A DNA stretch of 64,000 bases, from sequence record MN655998.1; one strand, given 5' to 3'. Positions 12,715-39,524 of this stretch are shown one piece after another. The stretch's first letter is position 1. Every line of letters begins with the position of its first letter. Source of the DNA: Escherichia phage E26. The position numbers and the translations under genes were made by a program. Below the pieces are notes generated by a model. The model saw only the letters and a program-made list of their open reading frames with translations, ran no database searches and had not been told where the DNA came from.

Positions 12715-13350
12715 TCAATCGAATGTAGAAAGCAACTGTTTTGTTTCTTTCAGTTGTCGTTCAAGATTTTTGCGTTTCTCTTTAAGTTGCATTTTAGCAT
12801 TATTTCGCTCTCTTGTAACCTCTTTATCAATGCTCTTATTCCAGTTATCAATATCAGAATAAGTTGGCATACCCAATTCTAAACCTAATGCGGTTGGATG
12901 CAGGGTAACAGTCCATAAACCGCTAATCTTCTTAAATAGGTCTGGGTGTAGTGTACTATCTACATCTTCCGGTGTCAACTCTTTTTCTTCTTTCAGTGGT
13001 GGGTTCTCGTCATATGGTTCCAGTGCATTTACTTTAATATCAGATACCTCATCAAAGAATCCGCGTACATCCGCAGGAAATACACAAGCAATTTCCCAAC
13101 CGTGTTCACGCAGAGAAGTAATATTTTTCACTTCCCCACCATGTGCGATAATTGACGTAACATTACCATCAAGATCCACAGAATTTACAAGAAACGGCTT
13201 ATCGTCTGTCAGATCATTATAAAATTGTGCTTCGGCGGTAGTCATCTCCAGAAAAAGGTCACGAATAGGTCGACCATCTGGTGCATTGCCTTCCTTGAGA
13301 GTGTAGATTCGACTTACGATCCATTTTGGCGGTAAAGTATTAGCGATCAT
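12715..13350 (-). CDS. hypothetical protein
   Basis: ORF tiling; AGGAG RBS. Confidence 0.5.
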   Translation of the reverse strand: MIANTLPPKWIVSRIYTLKEGNAPDGRPIRDLFLEMTTAEAQFYNDLTDDKPFLVNSVDLDGNVTSIIAHGGEVKNITSLREHGWEIACVFPADVRGFFDEVSDIKVNALEPYDENPPLKEEKELTPEDVDSTLHPDLFKKISGLWTVTLHPTALGLELGMPTYSDIDNWNKSIDKEVTRERNNAKMQLKEKRKNLERQLKETKQLLSTFD

Positions 13351-26071: not shown

Positions 26072-27097
26072 CTAACTTTTTGCGCTATTTACTTCGGCTA
26101 AAAGCTCATCGGAGATACGCTTAACTGCCGCAAGTTCTTCCGGTTCTAGGTTTTGTTCTTCCAGATATTCATAGACCATCTGAATAGTGCTTTTAACTTC
26201 AATAACACCTGTTTCCTGTGATGCGCTACTCTCCAGCTTATGGACCACTTTTAGCTTGTGTACAACGGCCTCTAACGCGCTTTCTAACTTAGTTAACCCA
26301 TTATCAGCGACCGTTGCAATTAGGCGCACACTAAGCCCTTTAAAGCGTTCTACATCGATTTTATCATCTGACGGGTAAGTGATACGCACATGATAAGTTT
26401 TGTCATTCTGGATAAACTCCTTTTTGTGTGTATCTGTATCGAATACCCAAAAACCACGCGGATCATTTTCGTCGCCAGCCGTTAGTGTGTATGGTGTGCC
26501 AATATACGTTACGTTACCGCCATCACTGATAGTATGAAAGTGACCGGAAAACACTTCACGGTATTTCTTGAGGAAGTCCGCGCTATAACCTTCGGATTTT
26601 AACCCTTTATAGAAATAGTAGCCGGACAATTCCCAATGGCCTACACAATATTCGCTGAATGAATTTTGAATAAACTCTAAAACCTCGGATTTATTGTCAT
26701 CACAAAACCACGGGAACAGGTCGAATGATACCCCATCAAAGGTAACTGTTTCTGGCTTATCAATAACCTTAATGCAATCATACTGGCTTAACACTTCACG
26801 CGGCGCGTTAGGCTGGATCTTATTGCGTTTAAACATATCATGATTCCCGACCGTGATATAACAGGTGATTCCTGCCTCTTCCAGTAATGGGATGACCTTA
26901 GTACGGTTAAATTTCATGGTTTCATGTGTGATAGCCTTGCGACAATCAAACCAATCCCCTGTTTGAATCCATATCTTAATACCATTTTCTTTAGAATAAT
27001 CAACAGCTTTCTTGATCGTGTCTAAAATATACTCATGCACCCACGGATCATCGCCACCGATACCAGTATGCAGATCACCCAAAAGCAAAATTTTCAT
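26072..27097 (-). CDS. 47: recombination endonuclease subunit gp47 (Mre11/SbcD-like)
   Basis: Calcineurin-like phosphoesterase motifs (GDLH, GDWFD, GNHD, GHxH). Confidence 0.9.
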   Translation of the reverse strand: MKILLLGDLHTGIGGDDPWVHEYILDTIKKAVDYSKENGIKIWIQTGDWFDCRKAITHETMKFNRTKVIPLLEEAGITCYITVGNHDMFKRNKIQPNAPREVLSQYDCIKVIDKPETVTFDGVSFDLFPWFCDDNKSEVLEFIQNSFSEYCVGHWELSGYYFYKGLKSEGYSADFLKKYREVFSGHFHTISDGGNVTYIGTPYTLTAGDENDPRGFWVFDTDTHKKEFIQNDKTYHVRITYPSDDKIDVERFKGLSVRLIATVADNGLTKLESALEAVVHKLKVVHKLESSASQETGVIEVKSTIQMVYEYLEEQNLEPEELAAVKRISDELLAEVNSAKS

Positions 27098-27187
27098 AGT
27101 CTCTTCCTCTCTTCGTTTTCGATGCTCTCACTATATCATAGAAAAATAAAAAGGGAAACCCCTTTCGGAGTCTCCCTTATAAAGCCA

Positions 27188-27475
27188 TTACAGCATACTT
27201 AATACCGTTTGCCGTGTACTAATCCACATAGCAGAAAGCAGTTCTGGCGTGTGTGGCTGTTTGTAGATATCACGTAACTTTCCGATAGCGTAGATATACG
27301 CATCACGGTTATCATCGATGATAGCTTGTTCAGCCCACCGCTTAAGGCGTGCAATCTCTCGCGAGTTCTTACGCAAGATCTTTTCCGCTTTCTTAGCGGC
27401 TTTAGCCTCTAGTTCTGCTTGTACTTTGTCTACTTCATTCACTGCAATCTTGTCATGCTGTTCATCGTAAGTCAT
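27188..27475 (-). CDS. hypothetical protein
   Basis: ORF tiling. Confidence 0.45.
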   Translation of the reverse strand: MTYDEQHDKIAVNEVDKVQAELEAKAAKKAEKILRKNSREIARLKRWAEQAIIDDNRDAYIYAIGKLRDIYKQPHTPELLSAMWISTRQTVLSML

Positions 27476-28267: not shown

Positions 28268-29737
28268 CTATTCCCCATTACCATTATACTTTCTTTGCTT
28301 AGTTATCCACACTCTAACCATCTCTACTGATTCACCATCAGACGGATCAAGAGTTTTTCCTTTTTTCTTCATGCGATACTTAAATCCGTTAAATCTTGCA
28401 TTCTCTTGCTCGTTAAAGTCGAACATCTTTTTAAATGATTTTCTCCCTTTACGCTCACCACATTCTAGCGGAATCATTCGGTCTGTTATTACATTGGCAT
28501 TAGGTAGAAACGTTTTTAGATAATCCACCAACGCCCAATCAGGAACATATAGATTAACATTCTCCTTGCTCTCGTTGTCTCTCAGGTTACAACGCAAACA
28601 TAATTGAAATGCTGGTTCCAGATAATCAGACACATGACGCGCTTTCAAAAACTCGTTTGTCGGGAGATCACAACTATTAGCAAGACCTTTTAAAATATCA
28701 ATCTCCCATCGTTGAGGGTTAAAGCTGAACATCACAGCAACATTTTTATGATGAATGTAAGAGTTAAGACCATAAGATCCGTAAGGTATCCGCTCACCAA
28801 TACCATTTGTGCACGCTTCACGGTCCCGATTCACGGTATAAATGAAGTCATCGCCACATTCATTTTTAACCATATCAACAAGACGTTCAAAGGTATTGTT
28901 TGTTTCTGACTGGTGACGCGACCAGCGTTCGGAGTCAGTCATAAGGATGATGTTAACTCTATCTGTATTTTTATACTCTTTGAAATATAGTCTGGATTCT
29001 AGCGCACTCGGAACAAAATCGCAATTTGCATAGTATCGTAGATACTTCCCACTATATGTATCAAAGAGATTTGCACATGCTATCGTAACCTTTTTAAAGT
29101 CTCCCCACGTACCGTGTTTGTTATCGTTCAAGAAAACAATTTTCGACCCATTCTTCCGGTGTCCTTCGTTATGTTTTACCATAACGTTGATTTTCTTCTC
29201 TAATAACGCCTCATAAAGCCCTCTAAGAGAAGAATCGATCATATCAGTACCATCCTTTGCACTTTCTATCTTTTCTTTGATAGCGGCCTTCTCAGAGTCT
29301 TTTAGAACTAAGTTCTGTAGGCATTCCGATTCGTCGGCGATTGGTTCGCAATGCTTCGTGATAAGTTCAAGATTAGACTTAAACGGATACTCATTAAATT
29401 CAACCAGTTGAGGAACTTCATCAATGTAAAGAGCATATTCACCAAACATTTTTGAACGTTCCATATTAGATAACGCTGTATGTGTAATGAATATCACATC
29501 AGCACCGTCTTTAACTGATTGCATTATCGACGCTTGCACTGTCTTAAGGCTTCTTAGTCTTGTGCTATCGATCAAGACAGCACGACCGCCCATTCTTTTA
29601 AACTTATTGTAAGATTGTTCACTTAAAACACGAGATGGCGAAGCAATAACCGCTTTTTCTTTTGTCTCTAGGACGTGGGAAAGTATAGCATCAGTTTTCC
29701 CCGCCGCTGGCAATGCGATTAATGTTTCAATCTTCAT
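28268..29737 (-). CDS. P-loop NTPase of unknown function with Cys/Lys-rich C-terminus
   Basis: Walker A-like ALPAAGKTD, Walker B-like LYIDEVPQ about 95 aa later; not recognised as a T4 core gene. Confidence 0.5.
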   Translation of the reverse strand: MKIETLIALPAAGKTDAILSHVLETKEKAVIASPSRVLSEQSYNKFKRMGGRAVLIDSTRLRSLKTVQASIMQSVKDGADVIFITHTALSNMERSKMFGEYALYIDEVPQLVEFNEYPFKSNLELITKHCEPIADESECLQNLVLKDSEKAAIKEKIESAKDGTDMIDSSLRGLYEALLEKKINVMVKHNEGHRKNGSKIVFLNDNKHGTWGDFKKVTIACANLFDTYSGKYLRYYANCDFVPSALESRLYFKEYKNTDRVNIILMTDSERWSRHQSETNNTFERLVDMVKNECGDDFIYTVNRDREACTNGIGERIPYGSYGLNSYIHHKNVAVMFSFNPQRWEIDILKGLANSCDLPTNEFLKARHVSDYLEPAFQLCLRCNLRDNESKENVNLYVPDWALVDYLKTFLPNANVITDRMIPLECGERKGRKSFKKMFDFNEQENARFNGFKYRMKKKGKTLDPSDGESVEMVRVWITKQRKYNGNGE

Positions 29738-30042
29738 TAGAAACCCTTACGTCGTGCTTTCTGGCATTTCTTGATCATTTTATCAGAAATTTCGCGCTTA
29801 GGTGCAAGCTCTTTCACACCGAAAGCACTAATGCCAAATTCAGAGAGAATATATTCAACCAACAATTCACGCACACGCGCTTTACCGATATTCACGCCGT
29901 TATTTTTCAGATATGTCTGGCCTTCGACTTGCATCAGATCTAAATCTGCGTCGGTAATATTGATTTCTTCCCTGCGCCCAAATCGAGAATAAACCATGTG
30001 TGCGATTGCATTGTGTACTAACATAATATATTCCTCACTCAA
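29737..30042 (-). CDS. hypothetical protein
   Basis: ORF tiling; track start is TTG. Confidence 0.4.
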   Translation of the reverse strand: MSEEYIMLVHNAIAHMVYSRFGRREEINITDADLDLMQVEGQTYLKNNGVNIGKARVRELLVEYILSEFGISAFGVKELAPKREISDKMIKKCQKARRKGF

Positions 30043-30045
30043 GAA

Positions 30046-30204
30046 TTACTTAATGATACTTACTTTACCAGATCCATGACAATGAGCGCAACACCCATCA
30101 CCGCGCAATCCTGTCCCGTTACAGTGTTTACACGTCTTCAACGGTAAAGCCATTATAGCAAATAAAGCAATAATGAACACCGAAACTAAATTCTCAATAA
30201 TCAT
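30046..30204 (-). CDS. membrane-anchored DnaJ-type zinc-finger microprotein (52 aa, below track cutoff)
   Basis: Hand-translated MIIENLVSVFIIALFAIMALPLKTCKHCNGTGLRGDGCCAHCHGSGKVSIIK; GAGGG RBS. Confidence 0.35.
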   Translation of the reverse strand: MIIENLVSVFIIALFAIMALPLKTCKHCNGTGLRGDGCCAHCHGSGKVSIIK

Positions 30205-30463
30205 AAATCGCCCTCAGTTCTTTATAGCCTCCAATGTGCTCGTTGTCAATGAATATCTGGGGGTATACAAACCGGAGGCTCTTTGAGTTTAGCCTCCCCG
30301 CCAGCTCTTCAATCATATCACGGTCGGGAATAATGTCAACCCCGACCTGCTTGAATACTGGTTTAAGTGTATACGGAATACCCAGATCATCCAGTAGCTT
30401 CATTGCACCAATACAACCATAACAATGATAAGCCTCTTTCGGTATACCGTATATCTCGATCAT
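30194..30463 (-). CDS. nrdH: glutaredoxin-like protein (NrdH-like)
   Basis: CYGC active site, 89 aa, glutaredoxin fold pattern; adjacent to nrd genes. Confidence 0.65.
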   Translation of the reverse strand: MIEIYGIPKEAYHCYGCIGAMKLLDDLGIPYTLKPVFKQVGVDIIPDRDMIEELAGRLNSKSLRFVYPQIFIDNEHIGGYKELRAIYDY

Positions 30464-30966
30464 TTCTCAGCCTTTAATCTTTCTAGTTCTTCTTCCAGTT
30501 CCTTAATGCGCTTCTCGCGTTCAATATCACGTTGGATCTTAGTGGCGAATACTCGTTTAAACTGATTATAGTCATCAATTTTAAATACTTCCTCTTCACC
30601 ATATCGACGTACAGAAACTTCGTAGTTGTTGAAAAATTGTTCCAACATTGCATCAGTGGTCAGTTCTGCCGATACCACTTTAAAATGACGTTCTTCTGAT
30701 TGCAAAAACCAGTTGTGCGCGTATTCCCGTACATCATCAACATTGCGGCAGGTGTATACCGTGCCATCAATTTCAATCACAGAAACATAATTCACATCCG
30801 ATGCATGGTGATCAAATGCGATAACTTTAAATGGACGGTCGCCTATAAACTCTGCTATTGCATCATTTGCAACGCTAAAGTTTGCAAAATCTTCTCTCGT
30901 TTTCTTATCTTTCCACTGATAGGTCACGCCAGCAACAAACATATTACCATCCTCGCTCTTTACCAA
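30460..30966 (-). CDS. paralog family A member 1
   Basis: GVTYQWKDKKTREDF N-motif, C-terminal coiled coil; similar to neighbours. Confidence 0.55.
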   Translation of the reverse strand: MVKSEDGNMFVAGVTYQWKDKKTREDFANFSVANDAIAEFIGDRPFKVIAFDHHASDVNYVSVIEIDGTVYTCRNVDDVREYAHNWFLQSEERHFKVVSAELTTDAMLEQFFNNYEVSVRRYGEEEVFKIDDYNQFKRVFATKIQRDIEREKRIKELEEELERLKAEK

Positions 30967-31480
30967 TCAAAAATTCAACTTCACGACGTTTAATGTCTTC
31001 TTGAAGGTCTTTAATCTTCTGTCGATCTTGCATGATTTCGTCCATCTTGTCAAGTGCTGTAATGAAGTCATCGAAACGTTCAAAGGTTTTACCTTCATTT
31101 GCTTCGCCAAATTTAACCATTGTCAGGCCGTAACGACTACTAAACAGACGTTTCAACTGTCCAACGATTTTAGAATCAGTGGTTATAACTTCCAATTCTT
31201 CTACTTCACGAAAGAATTTTCTATCGAATGGACTAAAGAAATATGTTGACGTCCAAATGTCTTTTCCTGTAGCAGTTTTCGTCGTATGCTCGACCCCATC
31301 GAGTTCTATTACATTAATCCAACCATTATCATCGATCTCGATGATGGTAAATGGCTTGTCACCAATAGCTGCACTAATATCGCTGTTAAGTGGAGAAAGA
31401 ACACCTTCTCCGTTAGTAATAAACTCAGTTTTAGCGTTTTCGTCTTTCCAGGTGTAAGTTTTACCAATTTCCCATTTCAT
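30944..31480 (-). CDS. paralog family A member 2
   Basis: GKTYTWKDENAKTEF; C-terminal FITALDKM + coiled coil. Confidence 0.55.
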   Translation of the reverse strand: MKWEIGKTYTWKDENAKTEFITNGEGVLSPLNSDISAAIGDKPFTIIEIDDNGWINVIELDGVEHTTKTATGKDIWTSTYFFSPFDRKFFREVEELEVITTDSKIVGQLKRLFSSRYGLTMVKFGEANEGKTFERFDDFITALDKMDEIMQDRQKIKDLQEDIKRREVEFLIGKERGW

Positions 31481-31492
31481 AATATAGTCCCC

Positions 31493-31993
31493 TTAACCGA
31501 TTTTATCAAGTTCGTTTAATGCTTTCTCTGCTTCCTGTATAGCTTGCACCCTTTCCGGCATTTTGTCAAGAAAATCTTTCAACTCTTCAAAACTGGAGAT
31601 ATGACGCAAGGCGTTAGCACCGATAGCCGCATGTGATTTGCATTCAAAGCGGATTTTATAATTATCCATCGCCAATTTGAGAAGGTCTATTAGATCATAT
31701 TCATGACCAGGCAATAAAACTTCTTTGAAGCACGCTCGGTCGCCATCGGAAAACCATATATTATCACCAACATCGATAGAACTAATATAATCCCCTTCGT
31801 GATTATAGATTGAACGTACATTACCCCAACGGTCTACCGTAGCGACAGTAAATGGTTTATCTAGATATGTAAACACACCATCAATATTAGGTTTTTGTTC
31901 GTAACGCCAACCATCACGCAAAATACGCTTTTCGTCCTCACCAACCAACTTATATGTCTTCCCTTCTTCCCATTTCATAATATCATCTCTCAT
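31493..31993 (-). CDS. paralog family A member 3
   Basis: GKTYKLVGEDEK; C-terminal LKDFLDKMP + coiled coil. Confidence 0.55.
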   Translation of the reverse strand: MRDDIMKWEEGKTYKLVGEDEKRILRDGWRYEQKPNIDGVFTYLDKPFTVATVDRWGNVRSIYNHEGDYISSIDVGDNIWFSDGDRACFKEVLLPGHEYDLIDLLKLAMDNYKIRFECKSHAAIGANALRHISSFEELKDFLDKMPERVQAIQEAEKALNELDKIG

Positions 31994-32519
31994 TTTTGAT
32001 ACGTGATTCTAATTGGATCATACGGTCGCGCGTTTGCTTATATTCGCGGATAGCACCGATTCGGCTAGGCATACCATCCAGTACGCTCTTAATACCTTCT
32101 AGGGTAGTGATTTTAGCAATGCTATTATGCAATCCTGTCTTATCGATCAACTGAATGTCGTAGGCTTCCATAAGCAGACCCAGACGTTCTAAAGTTAGGT
32201 CTTCTTCTTTTTCTTCCGATTCTGGAATCTTAGGTTCAATAGTAACTTCGGTAAAGAAACGACGCTCAGCAGCCCAAAACCACACACCGGAACAGCCAAT
32301 AGGGGATTCTTTTAACGTCATAGAGTCGAAATCACTACCAATAATAGTAATTTCTCTAACATCACCATCATCGTCAATGTCTTCTACCATAAACGGGCGA
32401 CCAGCCAACAAGTCCACAATACATCTGTTAATAGACGACGAAAATTTAGTCAGTTCGGCTTTCGACGCTTCGCATTCAATCTTGTAAGTTTTACCAACTT
32501 CCCATTCCATAATAATCAC
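31983..32519 (-). CDS. paralog family A member 4
   Basis: GKTYKIECEASKAEL; C-terminal IKSVLDGMP + coiled coil. Confidence 0.55.
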   Translation of the reverse strand: MIIMEWEVGKTYKIECEASKAELTKFSSSINRCIVDLLAGRPFMVEDIDDDGDVREITIIGSDFDSMTLKESPIGCSGVWFWAAERRFFTEVTIEPKIPESEEKEEDLTLERLGLLMEAYDIQLIDKTGLHNSIAKITTLEGIKSVLDGMPSRIGAIREYKQTRDRMIQLESRIKNER

Positions 32520-32520
32520 C

Positions 32521-33030
32521 TCAAATAATTTTCACTGGAATACTATTAACAATCTTGTATTGTACTTGATTGTCAGACCCCCGCCACGGCTTCTTCGTTG
32601 GCATATCTTTAATATAACGACCATCTATGAACATGTCAACTGATTCTACAATTTTTCTTTGCTCATCATTCAATTGGTCAAGGGTATAACCGGACCATAG
32701 CCAAATATCTTTATTTGGCATCCATGATTTTACTTCATCGATGATCCGCTGTACACCCTTTAAATTGCGTTTATACAGCGGATCACCACCTAAGAATGTT
32801 AACCCCTGAATAAAATCAGGTCTAAGCAGATCCAGAATCAATCCCATTGTATCATCGGTGAATGGTTCCCCGTTCTTAGGATTGAGTAGGCTAGCATTAA
32901 AGCAACCATCACATGCGTGTGAACATCCGGTAACGTAAAGGGAGACTCTCACTCCCTCACCGTTAACCATATCACAATCTTTAATATCGGCATAGCGTAG
33001 TTTGCCGTATGTATCAGAACTCATATTCAA
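32521..33030 (-). CDS. nrdG: anaerobic ribonucleotide reductase activating protein (radical SAM)
   Basis: CxxxCxxC cluster CSHACDGC; 169 aa; adjacent to nrdD. Confidence 0.85.
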   Translation of the reverse strand: MNMSSDTYGKLRYADIKDCDMVNGEGVRVSLYVTGCSHACDGCFNASLLNPKNGEPFTDDTMGLILDLLRPDFIQGLTFLGGDPLYKRNLKGVQRIIDEVKSWMPNKDIWLWSGYTLDQLNDEQRKIVESVDMFIDGRYIKDMPTKKPWRGSDNQVQYKIVNSIPVKII

Positions 33031-33166
33031 TTACCCCGAACTCGTTTACAATCTGCGCTTTATAGTAACCACCGCGAGATGCTAATAGATAAGCTGGGCT
33101 TAGGTATTCGTATTCACGGATTTCTACTTGTGCGTTTTCAGTTTCCCAAATCAGTAAAGTCCACAT
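33014..33166 (-). CDS. small hypothetical protein (start after promoter cassette)
   Basis: Track ORF 33014..33241 includes promoter; ATG at 33166 follows AGGAGAATCAAAT. Confidence 0.4.
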   Translation of the reverse strand: MWTLLIWETENAQVEIREYEYLSPAYLLASRGGYYKAQIVNEFGVIEYEF

Positions 33167-33208
33167 ATTTGATTCTCCTGTAAAGTTGTATCTCGTCTTG
33201 ATGAATAT

Positions 33209-33237
33209 AGTATAGGGGATCGCGAGATCCCCGTCAA
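33209..33237 (-). promoter_or_regulatory. early promoter cassette (TTGACG-N17-TATACT)
   Basis: Palindrome GGGGATCGCGAGATCCCC in spacer. Confidence 0.45.
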
Positions 33238-33241
33238 GCAT

Positions 33242-33775
33242 TTATTTTAAATTTTTTCGAATGTATTCAGACCATTCCTTCCCTGTCAGTTCGGTCCCAT
33301 TCTGGAAACTGAAATATTCATACGGCATCGAGTCAAGATAAAACAGGATCATACATCGCGCCATATAATACCAATCACGATTAAAGTAAACTACGTTATC
33401 TCCAGTACCATCAGCACCTTTATCATAACCATCGCGGGTACGGGCGACCCATTGAATGGTATCATTTTTCTCACGGATAGTAACAGGTTCCCAATATCCA
33501 GCACACCCAGCATGACCACACGAACAAGTAAGGAAATATTGACCTTTTGCTTTGTTGTCATCCCATTCACGATGGATTGGTTTGATCTCGTGAAACAGTG
33601 CCAAACAATCATGATTATGCAACACTGGCTTACCATCAATCAATGCATGGAATGTATACAAACGACCCGTAGACAAATAGCTATCCTCACGCTCAACCAG
33701 TTCAATAGCAATCTTTTTAGCTCGTTCTTTGTGTCGTTGTGCTTTACGTTTACGGTTTAATGATTTCATAGTCAC
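33242..33775 (-). CDS. hypothetical protein with Cys/His cluster
   Basis: CSCGHAGCAGYWE; no family recognised. Confidence 0.45.
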   Translation of the reverse strand: MTMKSLNRKRKAQRHKERAKKIAIELVEREDSYLSTGRLYTFHALIDGKPVLHNHDCLALFHEIKPIHREWDDNKAKGQYFLTCSCGHAGCAGYWEPVTIREKNDTIQWVARTRDGYDKGADGTGDNVVYFNRDWYYMARCMILFYLDSMPYEYFSFQNGTELTGKEWSEYIRKNLK

Positions 33776-33786
33776 CTCACATTATT

Positions 33787-34326
33787 TCAAAGATCGCGAT
33801 ATTGTACATTATGAAAATGAGAACTTGCATTACCAATATTGTAGATAACAAATTCTTCATCCGGCGCTTGCGCTACAAATTGAGTATGAGCAACCGCCAC
33901 AACCTTAAAAATACGATCCGTGATCTTGTGTTTAATTTCTGCCCCTACTTCCATAGGAACATATTCATTTGTTTCTGTTTCAGTCGCAAAACAGCCATCT
34001 TCTTCATAAGCACGAACAAATCGGTCGCAATCAGTACGCTTAACAAATTCAAGAGTATATAATTCTCGTGAATTGTCGGTATAGACCAATACAGAATTAT
34101 TATGATAGCGAATCACATACAGGTTATTATCATCGTCAATTACACAAAAGCTACGGATTCCTTCGCCTTGACTCCAGCAGACATTAACCACCGTTCCTCT
34201 AATAAAAAAACTTTCCTTTAAATTAAAACTAGTCAATGTGCTAGCGTGCATTTTAACAACAACACCATCGCCAATTTCCAGTTTACGAAGTTTAACTTCT
34301 TTGCTCAGTACACAAAACATCATCAT
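33787..34326 (-). CDS. hypothetical protein
   Basis: ORF tiling; preceded by promoter cassette. Confidence 0.45.
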   Translation of the reverse strand: MMMFCVLSKEVKLRKLEIGDGVVVKMHASTLTSFNLKESFFIRGTVVNVCWSQGEGIRSFCVIDDDNNLYVIRYHNNSVLVYTDNSRELYTLEFVKRTDCDRFVRAYEEDGCFATETETNEYVPMEVGAEIKHKITDRIFKVVAVAHTQFVAQAPDEEFVIYNIGNASSHFHNVQYRDL

Positions 34327-34355
34327 GTTGTCCTCTCGTTGTTTTCGATGTGAGC

Positions 34356-34383
34356 ATTATACATTAGCTAATCAGGTTGTCAA
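34356..34383 (-). promoter_or_regulatory. early promoter cassette (TTGACA-N16-TATAAT)
   Basis: Immediately downstream of nrdD terminator. Confidence 0.5.
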
Positions 34384-34395
34384 CACCCAAAAACG

Positions 34396-34420
34396 AAAAA
34401 GCCGACCCTTTCGGATCGGC
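34396..34420 (-). terminator. rho-independent terminator after nrdD
   Basis: GCCGATCCGAAAGGGTCGGC + UUUUU. Confidence 0.55.
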
Positions 34421-34426
34421 TGAAAA

Positions 34427-36289
34427 TTACATGTGCTTAACGCGGTTTACCATCTCGGAGTGTTTCCCGTGGTTGAATGGACGCAGATCAACAGATCCAA
34501 GATATCCACTAACGCGACGGATAACATTCATCTTTTCCAGATTGTCGTTGCCGCAATCAGGACAAACAAAACCAGACTCGGTCGCTCTCATTTCCTTATT
34601 AGATCCGCATACATGACATACATCAGAAGGAGTATTAACACCGAAGTAGTGCAATTTATCCATTGCATAGTCTACTACAGTTTCAAGACCTTTCAGGTTG
34701 TTTTTCATGTCTGGGAACTCAACATAAGAGATCATGCCACCGGACGCCAGCCAGTGATAATCTTTCTCAAAGTCGATTTTCTCAAATGGTGTGACTTTCC
34801 GGTCTACGTCAAGGTGGAATGAGTTGGTGTACCAGTCTTTATCGGTAGCACCCTTAACAATACCAAATTGCTCTCGATCCAGTCGATTAAATCGATAGCA
34901 AAGGCTCTCGGCTGGCGTACCGTAAAGACTAAACCCAAGTCCGGTTTCATCCTTCCATTTTTCAGTATAATGACGCAAGATCTTAAGAATATGTTTACCG
35001 TATCGCTGCGCATCTTCCGAATCAAACGGATGAACACCAAACAGGACGCTCAATACCTCATGTAAACCAATATATCCAAGAGAGATACTAGCGCGACCAT
35101 CTTTCAACACTTCCAAAATTTCATCGTTTTGATGAATACGGAAAAATGCACCTTCTGTATACAGCACCGGAGCAACATTGGCTTTAGCGCCTTTTAAAGC
35201 GTCTACGCGACTCATGAGCGCATCAAAGCAAATAGGCATACGATTGGCTAGCTCTTGTTCGAATAGCTCAATTCTGCGCATTACAGACGCTTTACCAGCA
35301 CGAAGCGCGGCAATAAGGGCAATACGCGGAAGATTCAGAGTCACAACACCTAAGTTATTACGTCCGTCTAATACTTCTTCGCCTTTCTCATTATGCCACA
35401 CACCCAGGAAGCTACGACAACCCATCGGGCTAACCGGAACACTAGATCCAGTGATGCTACGGTTATTCTTCGCAGAGATATAATCAGGGTAAAGACGCTT
35501 ACTAGAACATTCCAATGCAAGTTGCTTAATGTCGTAGTTCGGATCTTCCGGTTTAAGGTTTAATCCTTCTTCTAAGAACATCACCAGCTTAGGAAACACC
35601 GGAGTTATACCATCTTTACCTAAACCTTTAGTTCGAACTTTCAGGATCGCTTTCTGAATCAGTTTTTCTTCCCAGCTAGTACCCATACCAAAGGTTAAAG
35701 TCACAAAAGGCGTTTGACCGTTGGTGGAGAACAAAGTGTTGATTTCATATTCCAACGCTTGATACCCGTCTAAAGTTTCTTTTTCTGTCTTCTCTTGTGC
35801 ATAGAGAGTATCAGCTTTGATTCCGTAGGTTTCGGCATCAGCAAGGTGTTTATGATATGTTTTCTCAACGTATGGCGCTAAAACCTGATCGATGTTTGCA
35901 ATTGTGGTCCCGCCATATTGATGACTTGCCACCTGTGCGATAATTTGAGCGGTTACAGCACAAGCAACGCCGATTGATTTCGGACTTTCGATTTGTGCGC
36001 TACCCAATTTAAAACCATTCTCTAACATGTCTTTGAGATTAACAAGACAGCAGTTAGTAAACGGCATAGCGGGTGCATAATCCATATCATGATAATGAAT
36101 ATCACCGTCTACATGCGCTTTATAGATGTGCTCAGGTAACACGGTTTTAGCAATCTGTTTAGACACAGCACCAGCAATCAGATCTCGACGTGTCGGGAAT
36201 GTTCGCGCGTCTTTGTTCGCGTTCTCTTTGCTTACTTCGTTTTCTTTACCCGTTGCGATCTCTGTAATGTCTTTGATTAGTTTTTCCAT
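34427..36289 (-). CDS. nrdD: anaerobic ribonucleoside-triphosphate reductase (glycyl radical enzyme)
   Basis: 620 aa; C-terminal glycyl radical motif RVSGYLG and zinc ribbon CHVCGS...CPDCG. Confidence 0.95.
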   Translation of the reverse strand: MEKLIKDITEIATGKENEVSKENANKDARTFPTRRDLIAGAVSKQIAKTVLPEHIYKAHVDGDIHYHDMDYAPAMPFTNCCLVNLKDMLENGFKLGSAQIESPKSIGVACAVTAQIIAQVASHQYGGTTIANIDQVLAPYVEKTYHKHLADAETYGIKADTLYAQEKTEKETLDGYQALEYEINTLFSTNGQTPFVTLTFGMGTSWEEKLIQKAILKVRTKGLGKDGITPVFPKLVMFLEEGLNLKPEDPNYDIKQLALECSSKRLYPDYISAKNNRSITGSSVPVSPMGCRSFLGVWHNEKGEEVLDGRNNLGVVTLNLPRIALIAALRAGKASVMRRIELFEQELANRMPICFDALMSRVDALKGAKANVAPVLYTEGAFFRIHQNDEILEVLKDGRASISLGYIGLHEVLSVLFGVHPFDSEDAQRYGKHILKILRHYTEKWKDETGLGFSLYGTPAESLCYRFNRLDREQFGIVKGATDKDWYTNSFHLDVDRKVTPFEKIDFEKDYHWLASGGMISYVEFPDMKNNLKGLETVVDYAMDKLHYFGVNTPSDVCHVCGSNKEMRATESGFVCPDCGNDNLEKMNVIRRVSGYLGSVDLRPFNHGKHSEMVNRVKHM

Positions 36290-36333
36290 TGTATCACCTA
36301 TGAAAAAGCGGGATTTCTCCCGCTCGTTGATAG

Positions 36334-36828
36334 TTATTTTACCAGTTCTGCTAATTCTTTTTCCGCCGCTTCCAGTTCAGCTTTAAGCTGTTTAATCTCT
36401 TGTCGCTTCTTATTAGCGGCTTCCTGCTTACTATTTCGGATAACCTGATCTAGATACAACTCCCAATCCTGAATATTTTTGATAATGTAGCCGTCAACAT
36501 TAATTGGTCGTAGATTCAGTACAGCTTCCAGTTTAGTCGCAAAAACTTTAATTGCTGGTGTGAAGTATTCATATTCGTTATCTTCAAACCAATAACCTAG
36601 ACTTGCATTATCAATACGAAGACGAAGTTCAAGATCAAGGTCTTTATCTTCGGTGTAAAGATCTTTCACCTGACCCAGCGAACTAACAACAACTTTAAAA
36701 CGAATTTTATCTACACCACCAAACACATCAGTAAGTATACCAGCAATTGAGCTATTAGCGCAAGATTGGTCGCTGAATGCGTCAAGGTTTTCTTTAGTTA
36801 CAGTATACCAAACATCTTGTACCCACAT
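36334..36828 (-). CDS. paralog family A member 5
   Basis: C-terminal coiled coil KQLKAELEAAEKELAELVK; family-like N-domain. Confidence 0.5.
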   Translation of the reverse strand: MWVQDVWYTVTKENLDAFSDQSCANSSIAGILTDVFGGVDKIRFKVVVSSLGQVKDLYTEDKDLDLELRLRIDNASLGYWFEDNEYEYFTPAIKVFATKLEAVLNLRPINVDGYIIKNIQDWELYLDQVIRNSKQEAANKKRQEIKQLKAELEAAEKELAELVK

Positions 36829-36858
36829 AATATAATCCTCTCGTTGTTAAGTGGGAGT

Positions 36859-36886
36859 ATTATAGCATACTCCCTTCGCATGTCAA
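36859..36886 (-). promoter_or_regulatory. early promoter cassette (TTGACA-N16-TATAAT)
   Basis: Stem GGGAGTAT/ATACTCCC spans -10. Confidence 0.5.
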
Positions 36887-38061
36887 GCACTAACTTTTTT
36901 CTTTACTGCTTTCACCTTCTGGCGAATTGCTCGAATCTCTTCGATCTCTTTTTCAGTATCTTTAACAATTTCTTTGCGATTCTGAATATCTTTATCGAGA
37001 TTATCATCAAGTTTAGGCAGCATGTCAATCAAGAACTTTTTAAGGTCTTTCAGGTTGCGAATAACAGTACCTTCACCCATTACCGCCACACCTACACCGT
37101 CCGGCAGATCACCAAACAGTTTAACCAGTTCAGACAGATGATCATGATCTTCTAGTGCTTCTTCCGGTTCAGATGGCAGTTCAACAAAGTTATAACGTTC
37201 ATCATTGCTGATCAAGTGATACCAGCAAAGCCCGAAAGATTTCGGTGTATATTCTACACCATCAATTTCAACCGCGTCAACACTTCCATAATCATCTACT
37301 TTAGTTACCTTAAATCCTTGTCCCAGCTTTTGAACAATTTCAACAACATGACTTGATACAGTTTCAGCGGTAAACCAATATGGCAAATTATGCTGATTTG
37401 GCTTGTAGCGTTCACCTACTTTAAATCTCTGACCATCCGCTTGCATAGAATGAAATTGTTGTTTCGTGATTTCCGCGAAGTATTCAAATTCGCTACCGTC
37501 AAACAAGCAATTCCATTGATCACAAAAACGATCCGCCTTAACAGTTTCACCTTTCGCGGTGATCATGGTAGCTGATCCGTGCAATTCTTCTTCAACTAAA
37601 AAGCCATATTCGACAAAATCAACAAGTTTCATAGCTTCTTTGTGATCTGGATCATGCTCTCCCCAGAATCGCTTAAATTCTTGCAAACCTTCTGGTGTAA
37701 ACGAATAACATTTACCTTTTTCAAAGTAAGTCGGCATTGCATCCTCTTTCTTGTTCATCGCTTCGTATGCCTCTTTTGAGATGCGTTTAAAGTATTTACG
37801 CTCATCGTGCATAATCATAGTAGCCCAATAATAAACGATATCCTCAGCGGAATAAACTACATCTCCAGCTTCAATAGTAATAACATGACCGTTGTCATCT
37901 TTTTCTAATACTTTAAAGCCCTTTTCGACGATTTCAGCAACCCGAATATGACCACGGCGCGAAGCATCGGTCAGAATAATTGAATAGCGAGAAAAGTCTA
38001 GAAACTCATCTTTACCACCTTCACGGAATGCATAGTAATGACCTTCAAAGAATTTAGCCAT
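36883..38061 (-). CDS. paralog family A member 6 (three tandem family domains in one protein)
   Basis: Repeats GHYYAFREGGKDEF / GKCYSFTPEGLQEF / GERYKPNQ; ERKYFKRISK; C-terminal LKKFLIDMLP + coiled coil. Confidence 0.55.
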   Translation of the reverse strand: MAKFFEGHYYAFREGGKDEFLDFSRYSIILTDASRRGHIRVAEIVEKGFKVLEKDDNGHVITIEAGDVVYSAEDIVYYWATMIMHDERKYFKRISKEAYEAMNKKEDAMPTYFEKGKCYSFTPEGLQEFKRFWGEHDPDHKEAMKLVDFVEYGFLVEEELHGSATMITAKGETVKADRFCDQWNCLFDGSEFEYFAEITKQQFHSMQADGQRFKVGERYKPNQHNLPYWFTAETVSSHVVEIVQKLGQGFKVTKVDDYGSVDAVEIDGVEYTPKSFGLCWYHLISNDERYNFVELPSEPEEALEDHDHLSELVKLFGDLPDGVGVAVMGEGTVIRNLKDLKKFLIDMLPKLDDNLDKDIQNRKEIVKDTEKEIEEIRAIRQKVKAVKKKVSA

Positions 38062-38092
38062 AATATAATCCTCTAGTTGTTTAAATGGGAGT

Positions 38093-38121
38093 ATCTTACT
38101 ACTCCCGTTTCATCATGTCAA
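38093..38121 (-). promoter_or_regulatory. early promoter cassette (TTGACA-N17-TAAGAT)
   Basis: Stem GGGAGTA/TACTCCC. Confidence 0.45.
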
Positions 38122-38124
38122 GTG

Positions 38125-38703
38125 TTAAAGTGACTTTTGGATCTCTTTCAGTTCAGCTACTTTATCGGCGCTGAATTTAGCGTAGGTATCATGTCGAATA
38201 ATTTCACTTTCAAGAAAGGTTTCCAGCCGAGATCTATTTTCAATAAGGAACTCTTTCAGGTCTTCCGCGTTCTTGATAAAGATTTTATTGTCAGTAATGT
38301 CATCTTCAATCGCAAAGGAGATAGAGCGAACTTTACCAAACAAGTTAATCAGATCTTCCAGAGATTCTTCTTTCTTAACTGGTTTCATTTCTTCAAACTG
38401 CTTTTTAGTGATGCGTTTAAAGTATTTGCGCTCGCTTGCATCAATCATGATTGACGCACCCTCATAATCATGAGTTTCTACCAAATACACTTTACCCATA
38501 ACATTAACCGTAAGAACTTTAAAGCCCCTGTGAAGCACACCATACAGGAACTTGTTATGTTGTGGATAGCGTTTAACAAATTCCTCTGCGGACTCAGCAT
38601 TACGGAAAGTGTAATAACGACCTCGTTCAAAAACAGCATCATTTGAAGACTTAGCTGGATACAATTTATACGTTTTCTGTACCATAATACAATCCTCTAT
38701 CAT
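38125..38703 (-). CDS. paralog family A member 7
   Basis: GRYYTFRNAESAEEF; ERKYFKRITK; C-terminal LKEFLIENR + coiled coil. Confidence 0.55.
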   Translation of the reverse strand: MIEDCIMVQKTYKLYPAKSSNDAVFERGRYYTFRNAESAEEFVKRYPQHNKFLYGVLHRGFKVLTVNVMGKVYLVETHDYEGASIMIDASERKYFKRITKKQFEEMKPVKKEESLEDLINLFGKVRSISFAIEDDITDNKIFIKNAEDLKEFLIENRSRLETFLESEIIRHDTYAKFSADKVAELKEIQKSL

Positions 38704-38972
38704 TTCACTAATTGAACAGCACGAAACAGAATGCGGTCACACGGAAGAAGCATAAATTCCCAACGCGGATCAAAGTCTTTAGCGGTATATGTTTTCCCAT
38801 CAACCGAGATTTCACTTACATAACCAATAGGTGACACTTTAAGAACAGTAAATCCATTCTTGATGACTTCGTAGGTATCTTTCAAACCTTCGTAGTCATC
38901 CTCTAAGAAGTCTTTACGTGCTTGCTCAGATTTAAAAACATAGGCAACACCGGATTTAAACATCTTACGCAT
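38700..38972 (-). CDS. paralog family A member 8 (single domain)
   Basis: GVAYVFKSEQARKDF...DGKTYTAKDF. Confidence 0.5.
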   Translation of the reverse strand: MRKMFKSGVAYVFKSEQARKDFLEDDYEGLKDTYEVIKNGFTVLKVSPIGYVSEISVDGKTYTAKDFDPRWEFMLLPCDRILFRAVQLVK

Positions 38973-39003
38973 TGTTGATTCTCCTTCTTGATTAGATGGG
39001 AGT

Positions 39004-39032
39004 ATTTTACTACTCCCATTTCATGCTGTCAA
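39004..39032 (-). promoter_or_regulatory. early promoter cassette (TTGACA-N17-TAAAAT)
   Basis: Stem GGGAGTA/TACTCCC. Confidence 0.45.
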
Positions 39033-39035
39033 CTA

Positions 39036-39524
39036 CTATCTTAATCTTTGTATAAATTGTTTCTTATACTTCTTCGTGATCTCTTCTCTTGTATCAGCGT
39101 CACAATAATCGAAACCTTCTGCGTCCATAATAGCAACCATCTCCGCGCGTGTCAAGCGTGAAAATCGTTTTACTTTATCAACAGCATATTGAGGATGTAA
39201 ATGATTGTTGGTGTAGTCTCCTTTGATGTAATTAACATAGTTTGTCGCCCAAACAACGAAATCAGCACCTAAAGCACCAACACCAAACCGTTTAAAGTCT
39301 CCGGTCAACGATCCTTCTAGGCGGTTGCAACACGAATGAAGCAATCCCCTTACGCGGCCTTGCCCTTTACCATCTAGATCGTGGTCGTGGTCAAGATGGT
39401 TTTTGCTCATATCCTCAAAAAGTGGCAATTGACAAAGGGGGCAAATGCCCCCCTGTTTTTCGAATAGTTCTTGTTTGTACTCTTTAGCACTCTTAGCAGT
39501 CAGTAACATAAATTCACCCTCCAA
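39036..39524 (-). CDS. 49: recombination endonuclease VII (Holliday junction resolvase gp49)
   Basis: CPLCQ...HLDHDHDLDG...RVRGLLHSCCN matches T4 endo VII. Confidence 0.9.
   Translation of the reverse strand: MEGEFMLLTAKSAKEYKQELFEKQGGICPLCQLPLFEDMSKNHLDHDHDLDGKGQGRVRGLLHSCCNRLEGSLTGDFKRFGVGALGADFVVWATNYVNYIKGDYTNNHLHPQYAVDKVKRFSRLTRAEMVAIMDAEGFDYCDADTREEITKKYKKQFIQRLR

Follow-up and report, generated by a model that had tools for sequence, protein, structure and literature searches.

The goF gene of bacteriophage T4 (ComC-alpha) has been known genetically since the 1970s-80s. In 2025 its product was joined with those of two other dispersed T4 genes, frd.2 and motB.1, into a single recognised family (PMC12152347). 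The three proteins have in common an N-terminal five-stranded barrel, called 'LSm-like' by those authors, whose closest solved relatives are FeoA-type SH3-like domains, and their C-terminal domains (CTDs) vary; GoF and MotB.1 run as monomer plus dimer, and early, abundant expression and dispensability in the laboratory are given as traits of the family (PMC12152347). A different kind of plasticity has been described in the hyperplastic regions of RB49 and phi1, where PeSL cassettes, built on intergenic promoter-stem-loops, move whole ORFans (PMC2839356). Here we analyse four consecutive genes, A to D, located between nrdG and nrdH in Escherichia phage E26, within a stretch of 64,000 nucleotides (nt) of record MN655998.1, hereafter called the window. 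By sequence profile, their products belong to the GoF family, and comparison of related phages indicates that their N-terminal barrels are exchanged as cassettes on nearly constant C-terminal domains.

The gene content itself is not new: the family has been known since 2025, and about 58 GenBank genomes carry the array proteins under the annotation 'hypothetical'. Over the region studied, the window is 96-98% identical in nucleotide sequence to the Krischvirus genomes (RB49/ECD7-like coliphages), that is, ECD7, FL37, RB49, GEC-3S and 54 other records.

GoF-family paralogs in the nrdG-nrdH interval

All genes of the array region are coded on the minus strand, and the nrdG-nrdH interval is filled by four tightly packed open reading frames (ORFs) in the order D, C, B, A (Table 1). 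Start codons were chosen using the conserved ATG, the Shine-Dalgarno site, the MKWE motif and the annotated orthologs; D, for instance, starts at an ATG with the Shine-Dalgarno sequence GAGGTGA. An earlier sequence-only reading of this DNA had given the products 166-178 amino acids (aa) and had each start overlap the previous stop. With the best-supported starts, A and C are shorter than this, and the genes are separated by gaps of 4 nt (D/C), 12 nt (C/B) and 1 nt (B/A); the sole overlap, in the form ATGA, is between the stop of A and the start of nrdH. Plus-strand ORFs overlap the array, and the minus-strand frames are those conserved and annotated in all relatives.

Judged from their sequences, the paralogy of A-D is statistically solid. 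BLASTP scores reach 56 bits for A-B and for C-D, 48 for B-D and 42 for B-C. When a hidden Markov model (HMM) of three paralogs was searched against the 632 stop-to-stop ORFs of the window, the fourth was recovered each time, with E-values of 3.6e-8 for A, 9e-22 for B, 4e-12 for C and 3e-21 for D. All four also match the function-unknown family phrog_5347 over its full length (E 1e-54 to 3e-65, profile positions 1-165). The proposal of four consecutive paralogs in this interval, which had been staked on their pairwise similarity exceeding chance, is thus borne out. So is the N-terminal motif read from the letters, present as KWE[VI]GKTY in B, C and D and as FVAGVTYQW in A. The proposed C-terminal motif K-x-F-L-D-x-M-P holds only in part, as DxMP in C and D and not in A or B, and what had been read as a coiled coil is a long predicted C-terminal helix.

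Kinship with T4 GoF emerges from profile comparison. A 34-sequence family alignment matched GoF in hhalign with 96.3% probability (E 1.5e-9, 86 columns), laying residues 2-91 onto GoF 4-92; the matches to Frd.2 (62%) and MotB.1 (42%) were weaker. The HMM of the four paralogs scores T4 GoF at 31 bits, and PHROG cross-matches from A-D reach families labelled 'goF mRNA metabolism modulator'. At the sequence-profile level, A-D are therefore paralogs within the phage GoF/Frd.2/MotB.1 family, a relation to an already known family (PMC12152347) that the sequence-only reading did not mention. Other searches returned little. The Pfam model FRD2 (PF03197) at its gathering threshold matched none of A-D, F, G, H and I (the last four being further family members, see below), the control, T4 Frd.2, scoring E 5e-39; Pfam and NCBIfam scans of A-D gave no match above noise, the FeoA model included; PADLOC found no match among nine family proteins; a PDB sequence profile search gave noise only (E at least 0.09); Foldseek retrieved nothing from the PDB at E<=1e-3; and Rfam placed no RNA family on either strand of 29500-39500. 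In a structure search at E<=1e-3, BFVD yielded 57 proteins of phages, almost all of them T4-like and infecting enterobacteria or Aeromonas.

The N-terminal domain (NTD), of about 92 aa, is predicted to be an SH3-like small beta-barrel with two helices inserted between beta1 and beta2. In the AlphaFold2 model of D (mean predicted local distance difference test score, pLDDT, of 74; 68-90 in the barrel blocks), beta1 is followed by two helices (residues 14-23 and 26-35), beta2-beta5, a disordered acidic linker (pLDDT below 50 at residues 94-103), a helix, a hairpin, a helix and a long terminal helix. The predicted model thus contains the bent five-stranded antiparallel sheet that characterises the N-terminus of the family (a small barrel of about 80-90 aa), followed, as in the family, by a flexible linker and a CTD of variable structure, each paralog having its own specific CTD. 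The nearest solved fold for the barrel is FeoA, with the C-terminal SH3-like domain of DtxR/IdeR and Tudor-like domains nearby, all of them weak structural matches. The barrels of A-D are acidic, with isoelectric points (pI) of 4.4-5.2 and net charges of -4 to -9.

Table 1. Array genes, anchors and other features of the window. Positions are those of the window.
Feature	Position	Strand	Details
nrdH (glutaredoxin)	30194-30463	-	conserved downstream flank of array
Paralog A, 160 aa	30460-30942	-	NTD ~30667-30942; CTD 30460-30666
Paralog B, 178 aa, one barrel	30944-31480	-	NTD ~31190-31480; CTD 30944-31189
Paralog C, 161 aa	31493-31978	-	NTD ~31706-31978; CTD 31493-31705
Paralog D, 175 aa	31983-32510	-	NTD barrel ~32235-32510; linker and CTD 31983-32234; phrog_5347 E 2.7e-65
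nrdG (anaerobic ribonucleotide reductase activase)	32521-33024	-	conserved upstream flank; 98-100% aa identity in 7 genomes
5' anchor repeat, 32 nt (spacer, ATG, KWEVGKTY)	D 32483-32514; C 31951-31982; B 31453-31484	-	found by repeat search
3' anchor and deletion junction in B	31196-31225	-	GATAGAAAATTCTTTCGTGAAGTAGAAGAA, encoding DRKFFREVEE
Predicted sigma70-type (early) promoter	33209-33237	-	TTGACG-17-TATACT; consensus scan 10/12; annotated promoter at same site in GEC-3S
Member E, divergent, 164 aa	36334-36828	-	NTD HMM E 3.9e-5 in window; weak phrog_3710 link
Member F, 392 aa, three barrels and one CTD	36883-38061	-	three NTD-HMM domains E 1e-27 to 1e-29; phrog_8944 E 7e-214
Member G, 186 aa, barrel and CTD	38125-38685	-	NTD HMM E 1.9e-24; phrog_8944 and phrog_5347 matches
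Member H, 90 aa, barrel only	38700-38972	-	NTD HMM E 5e-29; phrog_16115, phrog_5347 E 5e-8
Member I, 211 aa, ortholog of RB49 Dc2	12715-13350	-	NTD HMM E 3e-25; phrog_16187; RB49 annotation dc2
ORF matching Pfam DUF7170	33014-33241	-	E 2.5e-17; overlaps nrdG start
ORFan X	33242-33775	-	phrog_8242
ORFan Y	33787-34326	-	phrog_14838
PeSL-like element	34356-34421	-	hairpin 34400-34421; TTGACA-16-TATAAT 34356-34383
489-aa ORF	28268-29737	-	Walker-A-like motif LPAAGKTD

Constant tails, variable barrels and coding anchors

To survey variation, seven Krischvirus genomes from GenBank and an IMG/VR contig were compared with the window. NrdH, NrdG and NrdD keep 98-100% aa identity wherever they are complete in the compared stretch, and the CTDs of A-D keep 85-100%. 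Only over the barrel-coding segments does nucleotide identity fall, from 95-100% to 33-62%. The NTD of A exists as discrete alleles, 55-56% or 75% identical in other Krischvirus, next to a CTD at 85-100%. For C, an allele only 42-43% identical is found in RB49, KFS-EC, JK32 and phiS, the CTD being 96-100% identical across all seven genomes. The NTD of D is 48% identical in FL04, and the whole D gene is absent from KFS-EC. Alleles diverge from about 15 nt past the start codon, and their other breakpoint falls in the linker or in the first CTD helix. In ECD7, the D ortholog (L001 3807-4298) has 163 aa, with a divergent or partly deleted CTD start, and covers 60% of the D CTD at 90% identity; the linker and first CTD helix therefore vary in length too. 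The sequence-only reading had seen diversified tandem paralogs in a plastic region; this view is supported, and NTDs are replaced as cassettes between phages otherwise 95-100% identical.

The same pattern extends beyond these genomes. Among 151 family proteins tallied from genomes and metagenomes, each CTD type is paired with two to six NTD arrangements. B-type CTDs carry barrel types n1+n2 in 43 proteins, n1+n4 in 20, n1 alone in 10 and three rarer forms in the remaining 3, a D-type barrel on a CTD of the B type among them; two-barrel forms thus number 63 and one-barrel forms 13, and most relatives have a two-barrel form of 274-281 aa. D-type CTDs carry n3 (39 proteins) or n8 (4), A-type CTDs n5 (16) or n6 (6), and C-type CTDs n7 (4), n9 (4) or n11 (1). 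One metagenomic protein of 154 aa (P0114) is a natural chimera, beginning as a D-type barrel and continuing with the linker and CTD of the B type, which indicates recombination between paralogs at different array positions. From these comparisons, the organisation into constant tail and variable head appears to be new.

Substitution patterns speak to the age of the alleles. By the Nei-Gojobori method, synonymous divergence (dS) reaches saturation at 1.2-1.8 in divergent barrel alleles, against 0.05-0.1 in the flanks. For nrdD, the ratio of nonsynonymous to synonymous divergence (dN/dS) is about 0.03; it lies at 0.25-0.35 in the barrels, and most comparisons of CTDs give 0.05-0.1, the highest value being 0.36. 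For the CTD of A, dS is 0.36-0.87 and dN/dS 0.05-0.10. Saturated dS combined with dN/dS below 1 indicates old lineages moved by recombination: on these estimates, recombination has brought in the divergent barrels as old alleles, purifying selection acts on both domains, and the genes are therefore functional. Gene-wide positive selection was considered and rejected as not demonstrated, dN/dS being below 1 nearly throughout and dS being saturated in the divergent alleles; the single value near 1, for the NTD of D against JK32, rests on very few changes. All barrel types retain a framework (KWEVGKTY, F20, N28, PFxV, G49, WF and ERxFFxEV), and variability is concentrated in two stretches, the pair of inserted helices (residues 10-34) and the beta4-beta5 region (59-76).

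Short repeats within the coding sequence lie at the limits of the exchanged unit. The 5' anchor is 94% identical between B and D and 78% for C, and the allele breakpoints begin just after it. At the other end, the second B barrel of ECD7 and RB49 is flanked by two copies of GATAGAAAATTCTTTCGTGAAGTnGAAGAA, encoding DRKFFREVEE, which are 288 nt apart and identical at 29 of 30 positions; the one-barrel B of the window is the exact product of recombination between these 30-nt copies. As read from these alignments, coding anchors (5' ATG-KWEVGKTY, 3' DRKFFREV) delimit the exchangeable unit, and recombination between them adds or removes whole barrels, B of the window having lost one in this way. 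Shuffling mediated by PeSLs was also considered as a mechanism for A-D and was rejected, because the gaps between array genes are 1-12 nt long and hold no intergenic promoter-stem-loop. A PeSL-like element does exist outside the array, just downstream of nrdD: a hairpin followed by a perfect sigma70 consensus, with a terminator and a promoter annotated there in GEC-3S.

Family extent, slot and predicted expression

An NTD HMM built from the family was run on the window to establish its extent. It found members E, F, G and H beyond nrdD, where the sequence-only reading had the family continue, and, much farther away, member I. The divergent member E, 64% identical in JK32, scores 64 bits in an iterated whole-genome search whose iteration includes E itself, and its link to the family is backed by a bridging protein (P0166). 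Member F is annotated 'frd.2' in RB49 and 'goF mRNA metabolism modulator' in RefSeq. Directly downstream of gene 41, which encodes the helicase and whose mRNA is targeted by GoF(D25Y) in T4, lies member I; RB49 lacks a goF where T4 carries it, between 39.2 and dexA. Scanning the complete RB49 genome (L013-L016) returned exactly the same nine genes and no others, with 12 barrel modules; the window has 11, since its B carries one barrel instead of two. This expansion in Krischvirus, with nine genes and 11-12 barrels per genome against three genes in T4, appears from such scans to be new. The family as a whole is small: an HMM search run exhaustively over 1.84 billion representative proteins retrieved only 70 clusters at E<=1e-3.

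Distant members were traced from this representative-protein search to their contigs. In L017/L018, where nrdG is 71% and nrdH 56% identical to the window, six tandem full-length members (151-171 aa) fill the nrdG-nrdH interval. In L019, the end of nrdG is followed by at least three members. In L020, a T4-like contig of 24.5 kb, at least two copies are present, since a fragment of a CTD and a member with two barrels come before nrdH. Copy number in the slot is thus 3 in KFS-EC, 4 in the window and most Krischvirus and 6 in L017/L018, a variation that the sequence-only reading had proposed to look for in other T4-like genomes. A slot between nrdG and nrdH, kept in diverged lineages (nrdG 71-86%, nrdH 56% identical) with variable copy number, appears on this contig evidence to be new as well.

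The predicted early promoter upstream of nrdG would drive the DUF7170 ORF, nrdG, D, C, B, A and nrdH. A terminator scan found no terminator-like site between array genes; its single hit within the array (30792-30821, inside gene A, with 3 G-C pairs) is no more than chance would give, the scan having found 3 sites against 2.9 expected. Co-transcription of the array with nrdG and nrdH in an early operon, with translational coupling, is therefore likely from the layout of the genes. The DUF7170 ORF is annotated in relatives as a 50-aa version only, and the predicted promoter lies inside the longer ORF.

Other neighbours vary in their own ways. Between nrdG and nrdD, the two unrelated ORFans X and Y each show a whole-gene allele swap in one genome (X 48% identical in KFS-EC, Y 59% in JK32), with flanks 98-100% identical around the replaced alleles. 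On the other side of the array, a 489-aa ORF is 99.5-100% conserved in Krischvirus, and its homolog in L020, 44% identical, has a weak Pfam DEAD (helicase) match. An HNH homing-endonuclease gene stands between gene 47 and a-gt.4 in RB49 (26380-26934), JK32 and phiS; the window (27097-27188) and KFS-EC are without it.

Function and comparison with known systems

We propose that A-D are GoF-family paralogs acting as early, non-essential adaptors with variable target recognition, whose barrel cassettes are swapped at the anchors, and we give this reading a probability of about 0.5. The constant CTD would be a handle, by which the protein either associates with itself, through its long terminal helix, or docks to a conserved partner. 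The barrel, variable and acidic, would be the specificity module, and its ligand would differ from one host strain or competing genetic element to another; the pattern of constant tail and variable barrel argues, at the level of sequence variation, for such a module facing variable targets. Each phage would carry a repertoire of 11-12 barrels, re-assorted by homologous recombination. Since barrels differ between near-identical phages of the same species, their targets would more likely be strain-variable factors, such as defence systems or prophage and plasmid products, than housekeeping ones. This is the supported, though unproven, part of the arms-race function (host takeover or anti-defence) put forward in the sequence-only reading, which we regard as partly supported: the cassette polymorphism fits a module with variable targets, whereas no evidence of anti-defence or host takeover was obtained, dN/dS is below 1, and PADLOC, Pfam and NCBIfam returned nothing. 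A literature search on the RB49 ORF048-051 region, or on anti-defence roles of GoF-like proteins, likewise found nothing specific.

The ligand of the barrel would more likely be a protein or peptide than RNA, because the barrels are acidic, their topology and nearest folds are those of FeoA, DtxR-SH3 and Tudor-like domains, and wild-type GoF showed no RNA effect. In a competing explanation, A-D are LSm/Hfq-like RNA chaperones that would bind transcripts of phage or host and modulate mRNA stability or Rho-dependent termination, different barrels serving different RNAs. The barrel is homologous to the NTD of T4 GoF and inherits the database label of an mRNA metabolism modulator, Sm, KOW and NusG barrels occur among the weak structural matches, and the Dc2 ortholog adjoins the very gene whose mRNA is affected in T4. 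GoF(D25Y) raises the stability of a reporter mRNA, and goF mutants suppress rho alleles, but wild-type GoF and MotB.1 have no clear reporter effect, the authors see D25Y as a gain of function, and AlphaFold3 gives no confident rings for GoF (PMC12152347). The net negative charge of the barrels also argues against general RNA binding. Nor does the model of D look like an Sm fold: its helices lie between beta1 and beta2, an N-terminal helix of the Sm type is absent, and its nearest structural neighbours include neither Sm nor Hfq proteins. We therefore hold an RNA chaperone role to be unlikely, while giving it more credit than the two explanations that follow.

The position of the array could suggest accessory or regulatory partners of NrdG, NrdD or NrdH, tied to anaerobic ribonucleotide reduction, which would explain the slot. 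The slot does persist in the diverged lineages, the array is apparently co-transcribed and translationally coupled with nrdG and nrdH, and FeoA, the nearest solved fold, is an iron-transport accessory protein. Yet the array proteins have no sequence similarity to FeoA, synteny alone accounts for the position, and copy number (3-6) and barrel alleles vary freely next to Nrd proteins that are 98-100% identical; such variation is not what one would expect from a partner of enzymes this conserved, which makes this explanation improbable. Still less probable, to our mind, is that A-D are duplicated ORFans, dispensable and at present functionless, which vary through neutral drift and recombination in a hyperplastic region. 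One array gene is missing in KFS-EC and a barrel has been deleted from B in the window, as such an explanation would have it; against it, the CTDs are under strong purifying selection despite diverged synonymous sites, as the values for A illustrate, divergent NTD alleles keep their framework residues (dN/dS about 0.3), and 58 GenBank genomes, as well as distant lineages, have kept frames and Shine-Dalgarno sites intact. Moreover, a CRISPRi-ART screen of T4 scored frd.2 as a fitness gene (PMC11879866).

Several points weigh against the adaptor reading itself. Early timing is read from a consensus promoter match only. A small-barrel fold does not tell whether its bearer binds proteins, as SH3, Tudor and FeoA do, or RNA, as Sm and KOW do, and the only experimental lead in the family, the stabilisation of gene 41 mRNA by GoF(D25Y), is at the RNA level (PMC12152347). 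Dimerisation through the CTD is a guess, because the fold of this domain is poorly predicted: pLDDT is 46-87 inside the model of D, and the CTD of B modelled alone reaches 61, too poor for a structure search. A dN/dS below 1 is no positive evidence of an arms race, and the cassette polymorphism could come from a recombination-prone phage neutrally re-assorting old alleles that are equivalent in function. If the variability is neutral, the array would be an ordinary lineage-specific expansion of a small phage family.

The adaptor reading can be carried one step further, into what we consider a doubtful but possible model. The array would then be a recombination-driven repertoire system, in which the anchors let T4-type recombination swap, duplicate or delete ligand-binding barrels on constant CTD handles; phage populations would share a stock of intracellular modules that recognise strain-variable factors of hosts or mobile elements, for instance defence systems or competing prophages, and GoF-family proteins would be variable-specificity adaptors, not RNA chaperones. 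Such a system would be an intracellular counterpart of tail-fibre adhesin mosaicism. Whichever model applies, the Krischvirus array provides a natural experiment, with many paralogs, a constant tail against a freely exchanged barrel, precise breakpoints and variable copy number. It turns the GoF question into a testable one, through allele comparisons across diverse E. coli and through the identification of partners for the constant and variable halves. In the literature searched, we found no account of the lineage expansion, of the organisation into constant tail and cassette barrel with anchors, or of the nrdG-nrdH slot with variable copy number.

The T-even gp38 adhesins and internal-protein loci encode components of the virion whose roles, in binding receptors or countering restriction, are known. 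The array resembles them in combining a conserved scaffold with hypervariable, recombining specificity segments among near-identical phages, by analogy and not by homology; unlike them, its proteins have no packaging signal. Homology of the barrel does link the array to T4 GoF, to Frd.2 and to MotB.1; also shared are the flexible acidic linker followed by a CTD, FeoA as nearest solved fold, the occurrence in T4-like phages and, presumably, the early accessory nature of the genes. The array CTDs are longer than those of GoF and Frd.2 and end in a long helix absent from both, and the three dispersed single-barrel genes of T4 contrast with the nine genes of the window, mostly in two tandem clusters around the nrd genes and including some multi-barrel proteins. 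The description of the T4 family does not report any cassette-like replacement of barrels between near-identical genomes (PMC12152347). With PeSL shuffling, finally, the array shares the phage genus, a similar plastic early region and homologous recombination at short conserved sequences; the PeSL paper makes no mention of nrdG, nrdH or ORF048-051 (PMC2839356). The units differ: a PeSL cassette is a whole ORF between intergenic elements, whereas the unit of the array is an intragenic protein domain between coding anchors. The array thus reveals, within the hyperplastic regions of T4-type phages, a shuffling of domains inside genes that is distinct from the PeSL shuffling of whole ORFs.

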